In this document: positions 21,813-33,418 of the stretch, one piece after another
How positions within the stretch are numbered: position 1 is the stretch's first letter
How the letters are laid out: each line of letters starts with the position of its first letter
Origin: Candidatus Heimdallarchaeota archaeon
GTDB lineage: Archaea; Asgardarchaeota; Heimdallarchaeia; Heimdallarchaeales; Heimdallarchaeaceae
Assembly: GCA_030603365.1 (NCBI GenBank)
Contig: JAUVXV010000009.1
Span: 64,001 to 128,000 of the forward strand
Length of the DNA stretch: 64,000 bases
Reading direction: 5' to 3'
Program-made: the position numbers and the translations under genes
Notes under the pieces: model-generated
What the model was told of the DNA's origin: nothing
The model's input: the letters and a program-made list of their open reading frames with translations, nothing else
Database searches by the model: none

Positions 21813-21980
21813 TTAAAAAATAGGTTCTCCACAACTATTACAAAACTCAGATCCCTCTTCTAGTTTTTTTCCACAATGGATGCAAAAGCTTGGTTCCATA
21901 TTATCACAAACAAATAAAAGAACCTCTTCATATATAGTGCTTTCAGAATCAAGGATCTTTTCTAATTCAATCGTTTTCAT
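21813..21980 (-). CDS. Small zinc-ribbon protein (55 aa, or 28 aa from ATG 21899); absent from ORF track
   Basis: Manual translation MKTIELEKILDSESTIYEEVLLFVCDNMEPSFCIHCGKKLEEGSEFCNSCGEPIF; CxxC-x11-CxxC. Confidence 0.7.
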   Translation of the reverse strand: MKTIELEKILDSESTIYEEVLLFVCDNMEPSFCIHCGKKLEEGSEFCNSCGEPIF

Positions 21981-22581
21981 GTGATAAATGATTAGTATCG
22001 TTGAATTTTATTATGTTTATTTTTCCATTTGGGTATAATTTTATATGAGAAACGGAGCATGGTTCTACATAAAAATCCCAATAATGAGAAGGATGGGTTT
22101 CTGTTAAGTATACAAATATCAAGTTAATAGCAGCTCCATGACTTACCAAAACGACTTTCTCCTCTTCTTGTTCCCTTAATCTTAGAAATAGTCTATGAAT
22201 CCTATCTAATACTTGATAAAAAGTTTCTCCACCTGGAATTAAAACATCATTAGGGTTAGTTTTCCATTTTTCCATTAATGCCCTATGAAAAACATCACTG
22301 CCTTTTTTTCCTTCCCAATCACCAAAAGAAATATCCAGAAGATATGGTTCTTCTATAAATCGAGCTTTGTCTTGATGGCTTTTTATCTCTTCAGCTGTAA
22401 CTTTAGCCCGTGATAACCTGCTGTAATAGATTACATCTACAGGAATTTTGGATAATACTTCTCCTACTTCTTTAGCATGCTGAACTCCTAGTTCTGACAA
22501 TGAAACGTCTACTCTACCTCTAATTCGTTCCTCCCCTAAATTAAATGCTGTTTCTCCATGTCTGACAATATAGATTTCCAT
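21967..22581 (-). CDS. Histidine phosphatase (PGM/CobC) family
   Basis: IVRHGET, RAKVTA, FGDWEG, PGGET, VSHG. Confidence 0.93.
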   Translation of the reverse strand: MEIYIVRHGETAFNLGEERIRGRVDVSLSELGVQHAKEVGEVLSKIPVDVIYYSRLSRAKVTAEEIKSHQDKARFIEEPYLLDISFGDWEGKKGSDVFHRALMEKWKTNPNDVLIPGGETFYQVLDRIHRLFLRLREQEEEKVVLVSHGAAINLIFVYLTETHPSHYWDFYVEPCSVSHIKLYPNGKINIIKFNDTNHLSHEND

Positions 22582-25924: not shown

Positions 25925-26770
25925 TTACAAAAGAATGAAAATGAGGGTGAAAATTTGAGCATAACTTACAATCATAGCAATAAGTGCAGATTTCTCAACT
26001 GAAAGCTCTTTTATTTCTCCAACTGCAGTAATTATAATCAAGAAACTCCAGATTTGAAAAACTCCATGAAGAATTAGAAGCACTATTGATGGCACAACTA
26101 TTGCTGTTCCACTAGCCCAACCTATGATGCCAACAATCACTGTAAATAGAAATGAAGGTAAGAAAATTAGATTTGTTACGTTGATCAATGGAAATGTATT
26201 CTTATTTTTCTTGAAAGCGAATCTACTTAGAATTTCTGTGAAACCTGCGATAAATATCCAACTTCCAAGAAGACTGATATAACCAAGCCACAGAGGAACT
26301 TCATAGGAGATAACGAAGTTTCCAACAATAAGTATTTTACTTCCCCATCCAATGAACACACTTATTCCTGCTAGAATAACAAATTCAATTAATGCATGAA
26401 CAGGATTTTTTGCAAAGAATCTAATCAATGGAGCTAGACTAAATTTCCATATGCTGAATACTTTAGGTTTTTCAGTTTCTTCAAAAACCTCATATTCTGG
26501 TTTTTCCTTGCCCTTGAGGATATTTAGAGCTTTTACGCCATCTTCTGATAAGAAATACTTCTTATTATCCCCTTGATATACGAACTGTTTCATCTGACGA
26601 AGATGATGATAAAGAGGACCAGATTTAAGCTCGAAAGTTTCTGTAAGGTCAGTATATGTCGCTCCCCCTATTTCTTCAATGAACTCAAGAATCCTTCTCC
26701 TAATTGGATTAGAAAGAGCAGTAAACAATGCTTCTTCAATTTTAGAATCTTGAGACATATCTATCAACAC
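25925..26770 (-). CDS. ArsR-like winged-helix regulator fused to multi-pass membrane domain
   Basis: LFTALSNPIRRRIL...SGPLYHHL N-terminus; about 6 TM helices C-terminally. Confidence 0.82.
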   Translation of the reverse strand: MLIDMSQDSKIEEALFTALSNPIRRRILEFIEEIGGATYTDLTETFELKSGPLYHHLRQMKQFVYQGDNKKYFLSEDGVKALNILKGKEKPEYEVFEETEKPKVFSIWKFSLAPLIRFFAKNPVHALIEFVILAGISVFIGWGSKILIVGNFVISYEVPLWLGYISLLGSWIFIAGFTEILSRFAFKKNKNTFPLINVTNLIFLPSFLFTVIVGIIGWASGTAIVVPSIVLLILHGVFQIWSFLIIITAVGEIKELSVEKSALIAMIVSYAQIFTLIFILL

Positions 26771-26810: not shown

Positions 26811-29800
26811 TCAATCACCGAAATTGCAGAAAGATAATAGCTCTGTAAGTCCCAATCTTTCTAATTCTTCTCCTCTAGGACATCCAGTTTCAGGATTATA
26901 ATTCCTATACTCATACCATTCTTTTAGCTGGATTTGAATATCTGGAGAATTACCTTCTGTTGGACCATCTAGTCTTTGTCTCATGACATTGGGTAGAACT
27001 TGAAGTTCAGGTTTCCACCCCAGTCTTAGATTAATGATTCGTTTAAGAGCGTAAATTCTATCTCCTAATAGAATTAAGTCTTTGGATGTATATGATTTGT
27101 TAACTGCCATTCCAAGCAAATCTGCTACTAACGGAGCTGGGGGATTATAAAAAACGCATATGGTCATTGCATTATACAATTGCCTATAGCTTTGAAGATT
27201 GGCCATTTGTTTTGCTATTCCACTGCTTTCAAATCTACTATCTGGCAAATTATCTATCCCTATTTCAGGAAAAGTTGCTCCTTGCTGTACAAGGTAAGCA
27301 TCACCATTATTATGGCATGCTCCTCTTGGACTTGTAAGATACTGAATTGCCCATCCACTAAATGCTCTTGGGTCATGGAATGGTGCTTCTAATCCAGCAA
27401 CTTGTGGAGCTATTGCTGTATAAAGGTAATTTTCTGCCAAAACCTTACTACCTTCTGCTAATAAGTTCCCTATACCTTCACGTTTAGTAATCATATCAAG
27501 CAAAGTAAGTAATGTATCTGCGTTCCCAAAACTCAAATCTAGTTCTTCAGGTAATGCTTCAGAAGGGATATAATTCTTAGATACAAGATCAAGCAGTACT
27601 CCGATAGTTGTACCAGCAGAAATTGTATCCATACCATAATCATTTGCTCTGTAAGTTGCAAATGATACAGCTTCTAAATCTCCTATTTTCAGATTTGTCC
27701 CAAATGCTCCTAATGTTTCATATTCAGGACCCTTAGTTCGAGGAAGTTTATACTTCCCTTCTGGTATTTCGATGATCCTGCCACATCCAATCGGACAACG
27801 ATAACATGCATATCTTCCTACAAGTATAGTTTCCTTAATAGAAGCTCCAGAAAGATTAGATGCTTCATCAAACTTAGATTCAGACCAATTACGTATTGGC
27901 AAATCTCCATACATGTCTATTGCAACATCGAGATAACCAGCAGTACCAAGTTCTTTAGTGAGTTCAACCATAAAATCTTCTTTTATTGATTCATATGCTT
28001 CTCTTGATTTTTCTTTAAACTCTTTAGGTAATAGAAATTCTTTGTTTGATCCTTTTACAACTATTGCTTTTAGTTTTTTTGATCCCATTACGGCTCCTAG
28101 ACCAGTTCTTCCAACTGCTCTACCTTCATCATTCATAATAGAAGCATATTTCACAAGATTTTCTCCAGCTTGACCTATACACGCAATCTTGAATTTTCTG
28201 TCTCCAAGTTCATCTAGAATCTTTTCATGAGTAGCAAATGTTCCTAATCCCCAAAGCTCCGATGCATCTCTGATTTCTACCTTATCATCTTCAATCAGAA
28301 GATAAACAGGCTTATCTGACGCTCCTTCAAGGATTATGCTATCATATCCTGCAAATTTTAATTCAGGACCAAAATTTCCTCCTGAGTTTGCTTCACCCCA
28401 GAATCCTGTTAATGGTGAACGAGAACAAACTGTAAATCTTCCCGCACAAGAAGTGGGCAAACCTGTCAGGGGTCCAGTCATAAAGATTAAGATATTTTCA
28501 GGTGATAGAGCATCAACATTTCTTGTATTCAAAAATTTGAAATAATAATGTGCACCTAATCCACTTCCACCTACAAAATCCTTTGCCGCATCCATATCTA
28601 GTGGTTCTGTTGAAGATGTGTGATTTGAGAGATTTACCTTAAGTACTAAGTTCCGATAGCCTCCTCTCACAAAATCAGCCATTTCATAAAACATGGATTC
28701 TATTGTTTCATTTGATAATTCTCTTGGATTGACTAAAGATCCTGTGTCATTGAGTGCAAAATCACAGAGAAGTTCCATATTTTCCTGTAGTTGAGAATAG
28801 GTGACTCCAAAATCCTTCAGAGTTGTTTTTAATCCGATATCTGTAATTAATTCTTCTACTTTTAGTACTAGTTTTTCTGCTCCTTCTCTCGGTGAATCGA
28901 ACTCGATTCCGATTGCATGAGCTATCTCTGAATAGTGTTGAGCAGTTTTTTCTTCTTCCAGACAGAATTTCATCATGTGAGGTAGAGCAACAGCAATTAT
29001 CTCTCCATGAGGTATATTTAATATCGCACCTGCTGAATGAGCTAAAGAATGGGTTCCTCCAATTTGACTATTCCCAATAGCTATTCCTGCCATAGTAGCA
29101 GCATTGTGCATTTTTTCTCTATAATCAAAATTATTTCCCTCTTTCACTACTTTTGGAAGATATTCAAATACATGTTTAATAGCTTGAATAGCCATAGCAT
29201 CCGCAAAGTCATTCTTCCAGTCTATTGTATATGCTTCAATTGCATGGGCTAAAACATCCATCCCTGTTGAAGCGGTTAAACCTGGTGGAAGTTTGATAGT
29301 TAGTGAAGGATCAACAATGTCAATATCAGGAATTAAATCTCTATGAGCTAGACTCAATTTCTGTTTAGTTTCAGGATCTGTTATAATTATTGCCCAATTT
29401 GCATCTGAACCTGTTCCACTTGTCGTGGGGATTGTTATCAATCTAGCTTTATTTCGTAAAGGTAAAGGATCTTCAGGAAAAACGCTGTCTATACTCATAT
29501 CAGGATTTTCATAGAATACCCAGATTGATTTCGCACAGTCAATTACTGATCCTCCTCCGATTGCAACTATCCAGTCCACTTCTTCCTTCTGAGCTAGATC
29601 AGCACCTGCTTTAGCCATTGGTATAGATGGTTCATAATCAACTTGATCAAATATTGTTATCTTGAATTCATTTTCTTCTAAAAAACTAATAGCCTTTTGA
29701 GGAATACCTAAGTCTAGAAGAACTTTATCAGTTACAATAAGTGCACTTTTACCCTTAATTTCTTTTAATTCATCTAGTGAATCTTCCCCGAAAACTATTT

Positions 29801-29831
29801 TTCGTGGAGCACAATAAAACCACATAATCAA
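26811..29831 (-). CDS. Fusion: iron-containing alcohol dehydrogenase (aa 1-383) + aldehyde:ferredoxin oxidoreductase (aa 384-1006)
   Basis: ADH: GGGSVID, PTTSGTGS, GMDVLAHAIE, HSLAH, PHG. AOR: SPLTG, GRTGLGAVMGSKKLKAI, CYRCPIGC, PEYET, GMDTIS, DPR, RGACH. Confidence 0.92.
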   Translation of the reverse strand: MIMWFYCAPRKIVFGEDSLDELKEIKGKSALIVTDKVLLDLGIPQKAISFLEENEFKITIFDQVDYEPSIPMAKAGADLAQKEEVDWIVAIGGGSVIDCAKSIWVFYENPDMSIDSVFPEDPLPLRNKARLITIPTTSGTGSDANWAIIITDPETKQKLSLAHRDLIPDIDIVDPSLTIKLPPGLTASTGMDVLAHAIEAYTIDWKNDFADAMAIQAIKHVFEYLPKVVKEGNNFDYREKMHNAATMAGIAIGNSQIGGTHSLAHSAGAILNIPHGEIIAVALPHMMKFCLEEEKTAQHYSEIAHAIGIEFDSPREGAEKLVLKVEELITDIGLKTTLKDFGVTYSQLQENMELLCDFALNDTGSLVNPRELSNETIESMFYEMADFVRGGYRNLVLKVNLSNHTSSTEPLDMDAAKDFVGGSGLGAHYYFKFLNTRNVDALSPENILIFMTGPLTGLPTSCAGRFTVCSRSPLTGFWGEANSGGNFGPELKFAGYDSIILEGASDKPVYLLIEDDKVEIRDASELWGLGTFATHEKILDELGDRKFKIACIGQAGENLVKYASIMNDEGRAVGRTGLGAVMGSKKLKAIVVKGSNKEFLLPKEFKEKSREAYESIKEDFMVELTKELGTAGYLDVAIDMYGDLPIRNWSESKFDEASNLSGASIKETILVGRYACYRCPIGCGRIIEIPEGKYKLPRTKGPEYETLGAFGTNLKIGDLEAVSFATYRANDYGMDTISAGTTIGVLLDLVSKNYIPSEALPEELDLSFGNADTLLTLLDMITKREGIGNLLAEGSKVLAENYLYTAIAPQVAGLEAPFHDPRAFSGWAIQYLTSPRGACHNNGDAYLVQQGATFPEIGIDNLPDSRFESSGIAKQMANLQSYRQLYNAMTICVFYNPPAPLVADLLGMAVNKSYTSKDLILLGDRIYALKRIINLRLGWKPELQVLPNVMRQRLDGPTEGNSPDIQIQLKEWYEYRNYNPETGCPRGEELERLGLTELLSFCNFGD

Positions 29832-29857
29832 ATATTAAAAAAGGTAGAATAAAAATG

Positions 29858-30277
29858 TTATAGAAATTCTGTTGGAACTTTCTGTGCTGAATTAACCAAT
29901 TCTTTTGCAGCTTTGGTTGCTCGCATGACTTTTCCTTTGTCACCAACAAGTTTGAATTTTCTAGTAAGGATTCCTTTGATTGGATCTAATTCTCCATTAA
30001 TTACTTTCAACCAATTAGAATAGGTACCTTTATACTCAAATTCAGTTTTAGGTCCTTCTTGTCCTTCCTCAAAATAATCCACACTTCTACAATCGCCATG
30101 CCAGAGGTCAAGATAATATGTGTGTTGTTTATCTAGTTTATCATCTGGTTCGATTACAAATAGAAAGTCACCTTCCCACGTTTTAGCTGCTTCCTTGTAG
30201 TCTGGTGAGTTGTTAAGAACTTCCATGAATTTTTCTATCCATTCTCTACTTGGAAATTTTGCTGTCATCATAAACAC
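29858..30277 (-). CDS. SCP2 sterol/lipid-binding domain protein
   Basis: FPSREW...LN...Y..AAKTWEGD, YLDLWHGDC, W..VINGELDPIKGILTRKFKLVGD. Confidence 0.88.
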   Translation of the reverse strand: MFMMTAKFPSREWIEKFMEVLNNSPDYKEAAKTWEGDFLFVIEPDDKLDKQHTYYLDLWHGDCRSVDYFEEGQEGPKTEFEYKGTYSNWLKVINGELDPIKGILTRKFKLVGDKGKVMRATKAAKELVNSAQKVPTEFL

Positions 30278-30765: not shown

Positions 30766-31545
30766 TTGGCGCAACTCTTAGGGATTTGCAGTGAAGATGA
30801 AATAGAAATAGATTTTGAGTTTAAAGGTTCAGCAGGATATGGCGACAAAAATCCTGATGGTTGGGGATATGCCTACTCCAAAAAAGATTATTGGGTAATT
30901 GATAAAGAACCTTTTGAGGAAAATCAATTTGACAAAAAGGAATTTTCATTACGCTTTCCTGCAAATTTTTTCAGTAATTTACTCATTTCTCATATTCGAT
31001 TTGCTTCAAAAGGAAGAAAGACTCTAGAAAATACTCACCCTTTTACTCAAGAGTTATTTGATAAAAAATGGATTTTTGCTCATTCAGGTCATCTCCGAAT
31101 GTACAGACATGTTCTAGAAAGTTCAGACTATCTCACTCCAAAAGGAGAAACAGATTCAGAAGAAGCATTCTGCTCGATTCTTGGAGAAGTAAAATCTTTG
31201 GGTCGTTTAGCTGCAGATAAAGAAATTGCTAAACGTGTTGAGAGAACCGCTGTTGAATTAACTAACCAAGGTGGATTAAATTTCCTTCTTTCCGATAGAG
31301 ACAAGATGTTTGCGTATTATTCTGGATATAAATCACTTTATTTTGCAGAACTTCGTCCCCCCCATGAGATTAATATTGTGGGAGAGAATAATCAGCTCTG
31401 GTTTACCCTTTTTGTAAAAGACCAAGATGTCCAAATTAGCATTGTTGCTTCTGAACCTGTAATTCCTGATATTCATTGGAAGGAACTTGATGTTAAAACT
31501 CTTTACACTTTTAAAAGTGGCAAAAGGTACAAATTTGTAATGTAG
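30766..31545 (+). CDS. Class II glutamine amidotransferase (YafJ/EgtC-like), catalytic residues substituted
   Basis: NPDGWG, SHIRFAS, ENTHPF, GETDSE, LNFLLSD, VASEP; MAQLLG instead of MCxLLG, HSG instead of HNG. Confidence 0.85.
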   Translation: MAQLLGICSEDEIEIDFEFKGSAGYGDKNPDGWGYAYSKKDYWVIDKEPFEENQFDKKEFSLRFPANFFSNLLISHIRFASKGRKTLENTHPFTQELFDKKWIFAHSGHLRMYRHVLESSDYLTPKGETDSEEAFCSILGEVKSLGRLAADKEIAKRVERTAVELTNQGGLNFLLSDRDKMFAYYSGYKSLYFAELRPPHEINIVGENNQLWFTLFVKDQDVQISIVASEPVIPDIHWKELDVKTLYTFKSGKRYKFVM

Positions 31546-32460: not shown

Positions 32461-32551
32461 TATTTTTGGAATTTCAAGGTTATTTAAATACCTAATTAAG
32501 TGACTACAATCAGACCAATTCTTTTTATACAAGTTGAAATCTGACAAAAAC

Positions 32552-33418
32552 ATGAAGATTAAGTTAGTAACAGATGCATCATCTCTGGTTCCTTTAGAAT
32601 TCCTACAAAAGGAAAAAATAGGTTTTTTGGAATCAGTTCTTCTTATTGATGAGAAAGAATACAGAGAATTAACTGAATTAGATTTTGAAAAATTTGTTAA
32701 AAGTCTCCATGACTTAGATCCATATCCTACAACTAGTCAAGTTAAGCCAGAAGATGCTGTAAACGTCTTTAAACAGGCTATAGATGACGGTTATGATGAA
32801 ATCCTCTACCTTGGTTTAACTCCTAAGGTTTCAAGTCAAATGAATGTAGCTAGGCTTGCTGCAAAAACTCTGAAGAAGAAAATCAACATTCACATTTATC
32901 CAACTGAAGTGACATGTGGCTCTCAAGGAGCTATGACCTATATTGCTTGGAAACTTCTAAAACAAGGAAAAACTTCAGAAGAAATTATGGCATATCTAGA
33001 TGATCTTAAACAAAAAATCTATACCATTGGTGTCACAGTAGATATCGAAACTCTCTTCAAAACAGGTAAAGTGAAAAGAGGTTCAGCTAAAGGGATTCTG
33101 GTCTCTTTACTAAAAATGAAACCAATTGCTCATATTACTTTAGAAGATGGTTTTATTGGATATGGTGCAAGTTTAAGTTATAAGAGTGCTTTGAAGACAA
33201 TGATTGCTGAAATCGAAAAAAGAACAGATCCAGACCAAGAATATGATCTTTATATGGCTGATGCTCTGAATAAAGAATTTGCAGAAGTATATGCTGACGA
33301 GATTAAGAAAGTCAGAAAAATAAAAGATGTTCACTACTGGTCCATGTCTCCTGTTATGGCTTTATCTGCAGGACAAGATGCAGTTACAGCTACAATTGCA
33401 CCAGTTGTTAAGGAATAG
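32552..33418 (+). CDS. DegV family fatty-acid-binding protein
   Basis: IKLVTDAS, PTTSQ, LFKTGKV, LLKMKPI, MSPVM. Confidence 0.9.
   Translation: MKIKLVTDASSLVPLEFLQKEKIGFLESVLLIDEKEYRELTELDFEKFVKSLHDLDPYPTTSQVKPEDAVNVFKQAIDDGYDEILYLGLTPKVSSQMNVARLAAKTLKKKINIHIYPTEVTCGSQGAMTYIAWKLLKQGKTSEEIMAYLDDLKQKIYTIGVTVDIETLFKTGKVKRGSAKGILVSLLKMKPIAHITLEDGFIGYGASLSYKSALKTMIAEIEKRTDPDQEYDLYMADALNKEFAEVYADEIKKVRKIKDVHYWSMSPVMALSAGQDAVTATIAPVVKE

Follow-up and report, generated by a model that had tools for sequence, protein, structure and literature searches.

An uninterrupted fusion of iron-containing alcohol dehydrogenase and aldehyde:ferredoxin oxidoreductase in one genus of Heimdallarchaeial Asgard archaea, and the older split gene cluster from which it appears to derive

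In the bifunctional enzyme AdhE an N-terminal CoA-acylating aldehyde dehydrogenase (ALDH) is fused to a C-terminal iron-containing alcohol dehydrogenase (Fe-ADH). Acetogens pair an alcohol dehydrogenase (ADH) with an aldehyde:ferredoxin oxidoreductase (AOR), to our knowledge without encoding the two together. This two-enzyme route is described in PMC12727526, and the reduction of acids by AOR in PMC9295118. AOR belongs to the tungsten-containing oxidoreductases (WORs), of which approximately 4,000 were sorted into five classes in June 2026 (PMC13328260). Here we describe a gene that joins the two kinds of enzyme in a single frame. It lies in a 64,000-nucleotide stretch of DNA from a Candidatus Heimdallarchaeota archaeon (contig JAUVXV010000009.1, positions 64,001 to 128,000; hereafter the window), directly behind a gene for a small SCP2 protein, and was first pointed out in an earlier note made from the letters of the window alone. 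Our reading is that this is a real bifunctional gene, that it originated by stop loss within the genus to which the window belongs, and that it would carry out consecutive alcohol/aldehyde/acid steps on one chain; we give this reading as a whole a probability of roughly 0.62.

The open reading frame (ORF) listing and translation place the gene in a single uninterrupted frame at positions 26811-29831 of the window, on the minus strand, with its stop at 26811-26813 and 1006 residues counted from a TTG codon; residue numbers given below follow this count. The true start is likely to be the ATG at 29825, giving 1004 residues, because MWFY is the N-terminus of the orthologues and is directly preceded by a stop codon in two of them. 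Four Pfam domains lie in the frame. The Fe-ADH half (residues 1-383; 28683-29831) contains Fe-ADH (PF00465; residues 9-175, E = 6.8e-44) and ADH_Fe_C (PF25137; residues 186-381, E = 6.9e-50), and the AOR (WorL) half (residues 390-1006; 26814-28664) contains AFOR_N (PF02730; residues 396-594, 28050-28646, E = 3e-81) and AFOR_C (PF01314; residues 610-995, 26847-28004, E = 6.9e-100). The junction between the halves occupies 28665-28682 and consists of Met384 and the five-residue linker ADFVR. The presence of four domains in one frame bears out the earlier claim of a single Fe-ADH/AOR ORF, and the motifs named in support of that claim are all present. Upstream on the same strand is the gene for the SCP2-fold protein (29858-30277; 139 residues from a GTG; PF02036, E = 8.5e-10), separated from the TTG by an AT-rich spacer of 26 nt (29832-29857), as had been noted, and from the ATG by 32 nt. 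The spacing is equally tight in genus-mates, and the SCP2 and fusion genes are likely to be co-transcribed.

Orthologues of the fusion were surveyed in 400 genomes of the phylum and every locus was checked individually. In what follows g1 is the window's own genus, g2 its sister genus, the f-numbers are Asgard families and G000 is the window's own genome (3.65 Mb, 17 contigs, 89% complete), which falls in the Heimdall group of Asgard archaea as judged from named homologues. Intact fused frames were found in 14 genomes, all of them in g1 and 70-89% identical, and contig-end fragments of the fusion in three further g1 genomes. Since 14 genomes carry the same uninterrupted frame, the fusion is real and not an assembly error. 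Flags for internal stops were followed up at each locus: the TAG flagged in g1 closes the fused gene, and elsewhere the flagged stop truly separates two genes. A search of 5.8 billion proteins returned 16 full-length fused clusters (69-89% identity) from independent NCBI, ENA, JGI and Logan assemblies, and the fused homologues are named in NCBI merely as 'iron-containing alcohol dehydrogenase'. Among Asgard genomes the fusion is confined to g1, a single Heimdallarchaeial genus. The architecture described in the earlier note is therefore genuine, conserved and virtually free of linker, and its relatives are not all encoded by two genes, being fused in these 14 genomes and split in g2 and other families.

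Split pairs, in which adh is followed by an adjacent aor, are found in g2, in the f7 genome G082 and in many genomes of f31, f20, f12 and f13. The junctions of 30 loci were compared following tblastn-anchored extraction. The fetched split pairs often share one frame with a single TAG, TAA or TGA between the genes; at three further loci the genes are in different frames. Pyrrolysine read-through of the inter-gene stop was considered as a general explanation and ruled out, as all three stop codons occur. In g2 the ADH ends in ...LYNEML, a stop follows and the sequence resumes as VVLISGYRGK. In f31 the ADH ends in ...IDF and the stop is followed by a short spacer, which includes a purine-rich (Shine-Dalgarno-like) stretch, and a GTG. 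Set against the g2 junction, the fused junction of g1 reads ...DMLGEEKGGYRGK; most g1 junctions have the form ...DMLGE(L/E)xGGYR and that of the window itself is ...SMFYEMADFVRGGYR. Met384 corresponds to a conserved Met found two to three residues before the C-terminus of stand-alone ADH, where split forms end in ...NEML or ...YTMF and a stop. The near-absence of a linker thus stands as the earlier note described it, but Met384 (nt 28682), before which the note drew the boundary, belongs to the ADH C-terminus and is not an old AOR start. The alignment of these junctions indicates that approximately five linker residues (ADFVR) take the place of what in split relatives is the inter-gene stop, the aor start codon and the opening residues of the AOR. 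Several fused genes contain an out-of-frame TAGGTG, which corresponds to the stop and start of the split arrangement; it is given no weight here, TTA-GGT being common codons.

A quick maximum-likelihood tree of the AOR half, built with the PMSF (posterior mean site frequency) approach and with SH-aLRT (Shimodaira-Hasegawa-like approximate likelihood ratio test) support, gave a monophyletic fused g1 clade (98), sister to the split g2 sequences (96) and then to f7 (100). All three fall inside an Asgard adh-linked clade (100) and the six other AOR paralogues of G000 fall outside it. One sequence in the tree, L020, was labelled 'split' by a length cut-off and is a contig-truncated fused ORF. The fused AORs thus form a single clade derived within the split Asgard adh-linked AORs, so that the two-gene state is the older one. 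As g2 and other Asgard families hold the same genes split, adjacent, often in frame and behind SCP2, the comparison indicates that the fusion arose within g1, by loss of the stop and a few codons around it between adjacent genes of an older SCP2-adh-aor operon, and that it represents a recent offshoot of a three-gene cluster which is more ancient and widespread.

Searching with the window's SCP2 by tblastn placed an SCP2 gene directly upstream of adh-aor or aor in eight groups, namely g1, g2, f7, f11, f12, f20 (G167), f26 and f31. The SCP2 synteny is therefore real and old. The split Asgard clusters (g2, f7, f11, f12, f20, f26 and f31) resemble the g1 locus in having orthologous genes in the same order, an SCP2 partner and an HDPR signature in the AOR, and are 42-70% identical to the fusion. 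They differ in encoding two polypeptides, separated by a stop, which is often single and in frame, and a short spacer with a second start codon. They also vary among themselves in that some in f31 add an NMO-like gene and some in f7 are without adh. By these comparisons the deeper conserved unit is the SCP2-adh-aor cluster in its split state, which occurs in several Asgard classes. The additional protein of some f31 genomes is an NMO/FabK-like FMN protein (PF03060, E = 8.5e-47) encoded between SCP2 and adh (L031:4586-5692, minus strand, with equivalents in L029, L032, L033 and L036). Two f7 genomes, G083 (L048) and G081 (L050), have SCP2 directly before the orthologous aor and no adh gene; their genus-mate G082 carries all three genes as SCP2-adh-aor. 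The retention of SCP2-aor without adh in G083 and G081 indicates that the SCP2 link is primarily with AOR.

The SCP2 protein itself is likely to start at an ATG at 30268, which gives 136 residues as in its homologues. Its AlphaFold2 (AF2) model has a pLDDT (predicted local distance difference test score) of 95.4, and the best match in the PDB is the SCP2 of T. thermophilus, 2cx7 (TM 0.80-0.85, 30% identity); many lipid-bound SCP2s are matched more weakly than 2cx7, at E below 1e-4. The family to which it belongs has 506 members of 134-147 residues in Heimdall, Thor and Bathyarchaeia assemblies. The conservation of SCP2 equals or exceeds that of the enzymes in most comparisons, with 54-60% identity in f11 and f31 against 38-49% for the enzyme halves. 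The invariant residues of the family include a polar cluster in the motifs WEGDF and DLWHGxCR. Both features would suit a specific ligand, or contact with another protein, better than a passive pocket for lipid.

The solved structures closest to the ADH half of the fusion are the ADH domains of AdhE (3zdr, E = 9e-73; Foldseek TMt 0.92), and FucO and 1,3-propanediol dehydrogenase are matched at a TMt of 0.91-0.93. The best NCBIfam match of this half is likewise AdhE (NF010378), over profile positions 458-860, which are the ADH part, with a score of 313 bits where the cut-off is 951. No ALDH domain was found in the fusion protein. Residues were compared in an alignment of 37 sequences made up of fused proteins, in-frame split pairs translated through the stop between them, and bacterial fusions (see below). 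The GGGS loop (G90-S93) and the metal ligands D190, H194, H259 and H273, for which D196, H200, H263 and H277 of FucO served as reference, are invariant, as is the Asp of the VTD motif expected for NAD(H) preference. By domains, fold and predicted ligands the N-terminal half is an iron-containing (group III) alcohol dehydrogenase.

The AOR half matches 9mqx (E = 4.8e-119) and 1aor (E = 3.4e-117) in sequence, and 9mqx, 1aor and 9g7j in fold (Foldseek TMt 0.93-0.95). Its active site was mapped onto the numbering of Pyrococcus furiosus AOR (PfAOR) through the 1aor alignment. The ligands of the [4Fe-4S] cluster, Cys288, Cys291, Cys295 and Cys494, correspond to C674, C677, C681 and C890 and are invariant in the 37 sequences. 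The CxxCxxxC motif of the earlier note is thus present, but the fourth ligand is the Cys of TICVF, which aligns with Cys494, and not that of RGACH, which merely adjoins the catalytic His448. The active-site residues Thr243, Glu313 and His448 are invariant together with Arg182, and the fused clade retains the pterin and Mg contacts Arg76, Asn93, Arg182 and D343. In the same clade the first Asp of both DxxGL(D/C) repeats (D338 and D489) is replaced by Asn, and position 338 is likewise Asn in 9mqx, an AOR of solved structure. Thr243, Glu313, Tyr427 and His448 are listed as near-invariant in aldehyde-oxidising WORs (PMC13328260). The position of Tyr427 is occupied by His in all 32 Asgard adh/SCP2-linked sequences and by Tyr in the bacterial fusions and in the G000 paralogue L001; in the window it is residue 819 (27381-27383), within ...APFHDPR.... 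The alignment marks this His as a signature of the clade. With that exception both halves look catalytically intact, as the earlier note had supposed, the predicted metal and NAD sites of the ADH and the cluster and catalytic residues of the AOR being invariant.

Serial conversion of alcohol, aldehyde and acid with NAD(H) and ferredoxin appears the likeliest function of such a protein, and is the simplest reading because two intact enzymes of consecutive steps, a conserved gene order and a near-zero linker occur together. The metal site of the ADH would interconvert alcohol and aldehyde with NAD(H), and the tungsten site of the AOR would interconvert aldehyde and carboxylic acid with ferredoxin, so that a single polypeptide would both generate the reactive aldehyde and use it up, with no need of CoA or ATP. 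If the sequence runs as an oxidation, the unfavourable ADH step would be drawn forward by the strongly exergonic AOR step; if it runs as a reduction, the enzyme would drain both reduced ferredoxin and NADH. Both arguments rest on established redox potentials. The least secure step is that the SCP2 partner would probably bind or deliver a poorly soluble substrate or intermediate. Channelling and hydrophobic (lipid) substrates, both proposed in the earlier note, are possible features of the fusion protein, and the reaction may run in either direction. The AF2 model of the whole protein has a mean pLDDT of 89.7, with 84-88 at the junction and no disordered segment there, and Foldseek found no PDB chain that covers both halves.

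Several points weigh against this reading. The pTM (predicted template modelling score) of the model, 0.73, does not establish a fixed interface between the halves. Eight of the 25 g1 genomes hold paralogues only, without an orthologue of the fusion. The His in place of Tyr427 may mean that chemistry or substrate differs from that of the AORs that have been studied. There is, finally, the supply of the pterin cofactor: MoaC, the MoaA C-domain, MoaE and MoeA_N gave no match in G000 or in the 24 other g1 genomes (0/25), and no WtpA/ModA-type binding protein was matched in G000. The sole MoCF_biosynth domain of G000 is CinA-like. MoaC, MoeA_N, the MoaA C-domain and MoaE are also absent from genera g2-g4; MoaA, MoaC and MoeA do occur in g5, another genus of the family. 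Across the class MoaC was matched in f3 and f4, which are without this AOR clade in the 400-genome survey, and is almost absent in f5 and f7 (0/12 in f7), whose genomes mostly gave AOR-family matches in that survey. The absence of molybdenum-cofactor genes is unlikely to result from assembly gaps as it is genus-wide, G000 being 89% complete. This pattern of gene content suggests that the pterin cofactor is taken from outside or made by an unrecognised pathway, and several AOR genes without a pterin pathway raise the question of cofactor sharing in syntrophic communities.

The strongest of the other explanations is that the locus is a lipid module, in which SCP2 presents long-chain fatty or isoprenoid alcohols, aldehydes and acids to what would be a CoA-independent system interconverting fatty alcohol and fatty acid. 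The conservation of SCP2 synteny across classes, the higher identity of SCP2 than of the enzymes in f11 and f31, the match of its fold to lipid-binding SCP2s, the NMO/FabK-like FMN enzyme inserted in some f31 clusters and a DegV gene 2.7 kb away in the window all fit this proposal. The closest relatives of the ADH half are, against it, short-chain enzymes (the ADH domain of AdhE, FucO and 1,3-propanediol dehydrogenase), and those of the AOR half are broad-range AORs; the invariant polar cluster of SCP2 is unusual for a passive lipid carrier, and the bacterial fusions have no SCP2 nearby. We regard the lipid module as possible but doubtful.

Somewhat less probable, and in our view unlikely, is that the halves act in parallel. 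An incoming aldehyde, for example from the decarboxylation of 2-oxoacids in amino-acid fermentation, would be split between them, the AOR oxidising it to the acid with production of reduced ferredoxin and the ADH reducing it to the alcohol at the expense of NADH. On this view the fusion protein would serve as a redox valve or an aldehyde-detoxifying dismutase. Thermococcales provide the precedent, since in them AOR and ADH work alongside each other on aldehydes that derive from amino acids. The f7 genomes that keep SCP2-aor without adh also imply that the AOR can work without the ADH, and Asgard genomes hold many AOR paralogues that are highly expressed (PMC11291895). The near-zero linker and the widely conserved order of adh before aor nevertheless fit hand-over between sites better.

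A broader proposal joins several of these elements in an Asgard-wide SCP2-adh-aor module, independent of CoA and ATP, that would interconvert alcohols and acids of low solubility, whether fatty, isoprenoid or aromatic, by way of a carrier-held aldehyde and with a His-for-Tyr AOR. This module would have become a single channelling enzyme in one Heimdall genus and would depend on tungstopterin from neighbours, making the hosts pterin-cofactor auxotrophs. As a whole we hold it to be improbable, a little more so than parallel action.

It is very unlikely that the AOR half is inactive in vivo or has another role because no tungstopterin is made, which would leave an ADH with a large appendage. The missing MoaA C-domain, MoaC, MoaE and MoeA in 25 of 25 g1 genomes, the lack of a WtpA/ModA-type protein in G000 and its CinA-like MoCF_biosynth match would all be expected if this were so. 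The sequence of the AOR half is, to the contrary, well conserved, the residues linked to pterin, cluster and catalysis do not vary among more than 30 orthologues, and seven AOR-family genes are retained in G000. These genes and invariant residues argue for a cofactor obtained some other way. A missed stop or frameshift at the junction, as a sequencing or assembly artefact, can be dismissed almost entirely, since 14 species-level genomes and the clusters from NCBI, ENA, JGI and Logan show the same open frame and amino-acid conservation runs across the junction. Serial catalysis by a genuine fusion protein remains the reading that we prefer.

On the other side of the fusion gene, 40 nt downstream and on the same strand, begins a gene for a winged helix-turn-helix (HTH; ArsR-like/DUF7347) protein of 281 residues with a multi-pass membrane C-terminal part (25925-26770, minus strand; Pfam HTH_20, DUF7347 and HTH_5). 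It is kept directly downstream of the fusion in g1 and was not found at the equivalent loci of g2. This protein may be a regulator co-transcribed with the fusion. Further away the window encodes a DegV family protein (fatty-acid-binding family; 32534-33418, plus strand), a class-II glutamine amidotransferase-like protein (30766-31545, plus strand) and a histidine phosphatase (21967-22581, minus strand), and several ORFs flanking the locus have no Pfam match.

The rarity of the architecture was gauged by searching the whole fusion protein against 1.84 billion cluster representatives. Among the best 150 matches only three other clusters, P0139, P0174 and P0248, have both halves. P0139 (1026 residues) has the Fe-ADH/AOR domain set and no taxon attached; the P0174 cluster (1029 residues) was assigned by a genome scan to Anaerovoracaceae / Firmicutes UBA1422; and the P0248 cluster (977 residues), with the reversed order AOR-ADH, comes from Deltaproteobacteria metagenome-assembled genomes (MAGs), of which one bears the further label Ca. 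Tharpellaceae. These bacterial fusions have the same four Pfam domains in one chain. They differ in showing 31-35% identity, in forming clades separate from Asgard in the AOR tree and in keeping Tyr427, and no SCP2 lies within 4 kb of the Anaerovoracaceae loci. The separate clades indicate that Fe-ADH/AOR fusions arose independently in Anaerovoracaceae and, reversed, in the Deltaproteobacteria MAGs. Other AOR fusions met in the searches were with an OMP-decarboxylase/HUMPS-like domain (832 residues) and with a GNAT acetyltransferase (776 residues) (P0186, P0128); a 790-residue Asgard AOR with a C-terminal extension was also seen beside a 440-residue ADH (L041/L042). Full-text literature searches found no paper on an Fe-ADH/AOR fusion, on a link between SCP2 and AOR or on cofactor supply to Asgard AORs. 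The remark of the earlier note that it knew of no described fusion agrees with these searches, but the architecture is not unique, and public databases already contain the fused proteins with generic names.

Gas fermentation seeks to convert carboxylic acids to alcohols without ATP or CoA, and for this reaction a natural ADH-AOR on a single chain would offer a compact catalyst. Fused and split orthologues, matched as they are here, amount to a natural experiment on the kinetic gain from gene fusion. The conserved SCP2 partner and His-for-Tyr site also mark out an AOR subtype, as yet unstudied, in the archaea most closely related to eukaryotes.

Of the described systems AdhE is alike in fusing an aldehyde-converting enzyme to an Fe-ADH domain, and its ADH domain is the one most similar to the ADH half. 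The g1 protein differs in having neither an ALDH domain nor a use of CoA, in placing the ADH at the N-terminus, the reverse of the AdhE order, and in having a tungsten and [4Fe-4S] ferredoxin enzyme as the partner. The AOR half corresponds to Class I WOR, the single WorL, in having one [4Fe-4S] cluster and no adjoining WorS, WorN or WorABC genes. None of the five WOR classes includes an ADH-fused or SCP2-linked form (PMC13328260), and the main text of that classification mentions neither alcohol dehydrogenase, nor WorL fusions, nor Asgard archaea. The acetogen route, as in Clostridium autoethanogenum (PMC12727526), employs the same enzyme families in consecutive reactions without CoA or ATP, acid and aldehyde being interconverted with ferredoxin at a tungsten-pterin site and aldehyde and alcohol with NAD(P)H. 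The C. autoethanogenum AOR structure, 9g7j, superimposes on the AOR half with a TMt of 0.95. In acetogens the two enzymes are separate proteins, whereas here they form one chain, encoded behind an SCP2 gene and with His for Tyr427. The g1 fusion is thus an undescribed variant of a known two-enzyme route, derived from a widely conserved Asgard gene cluster.

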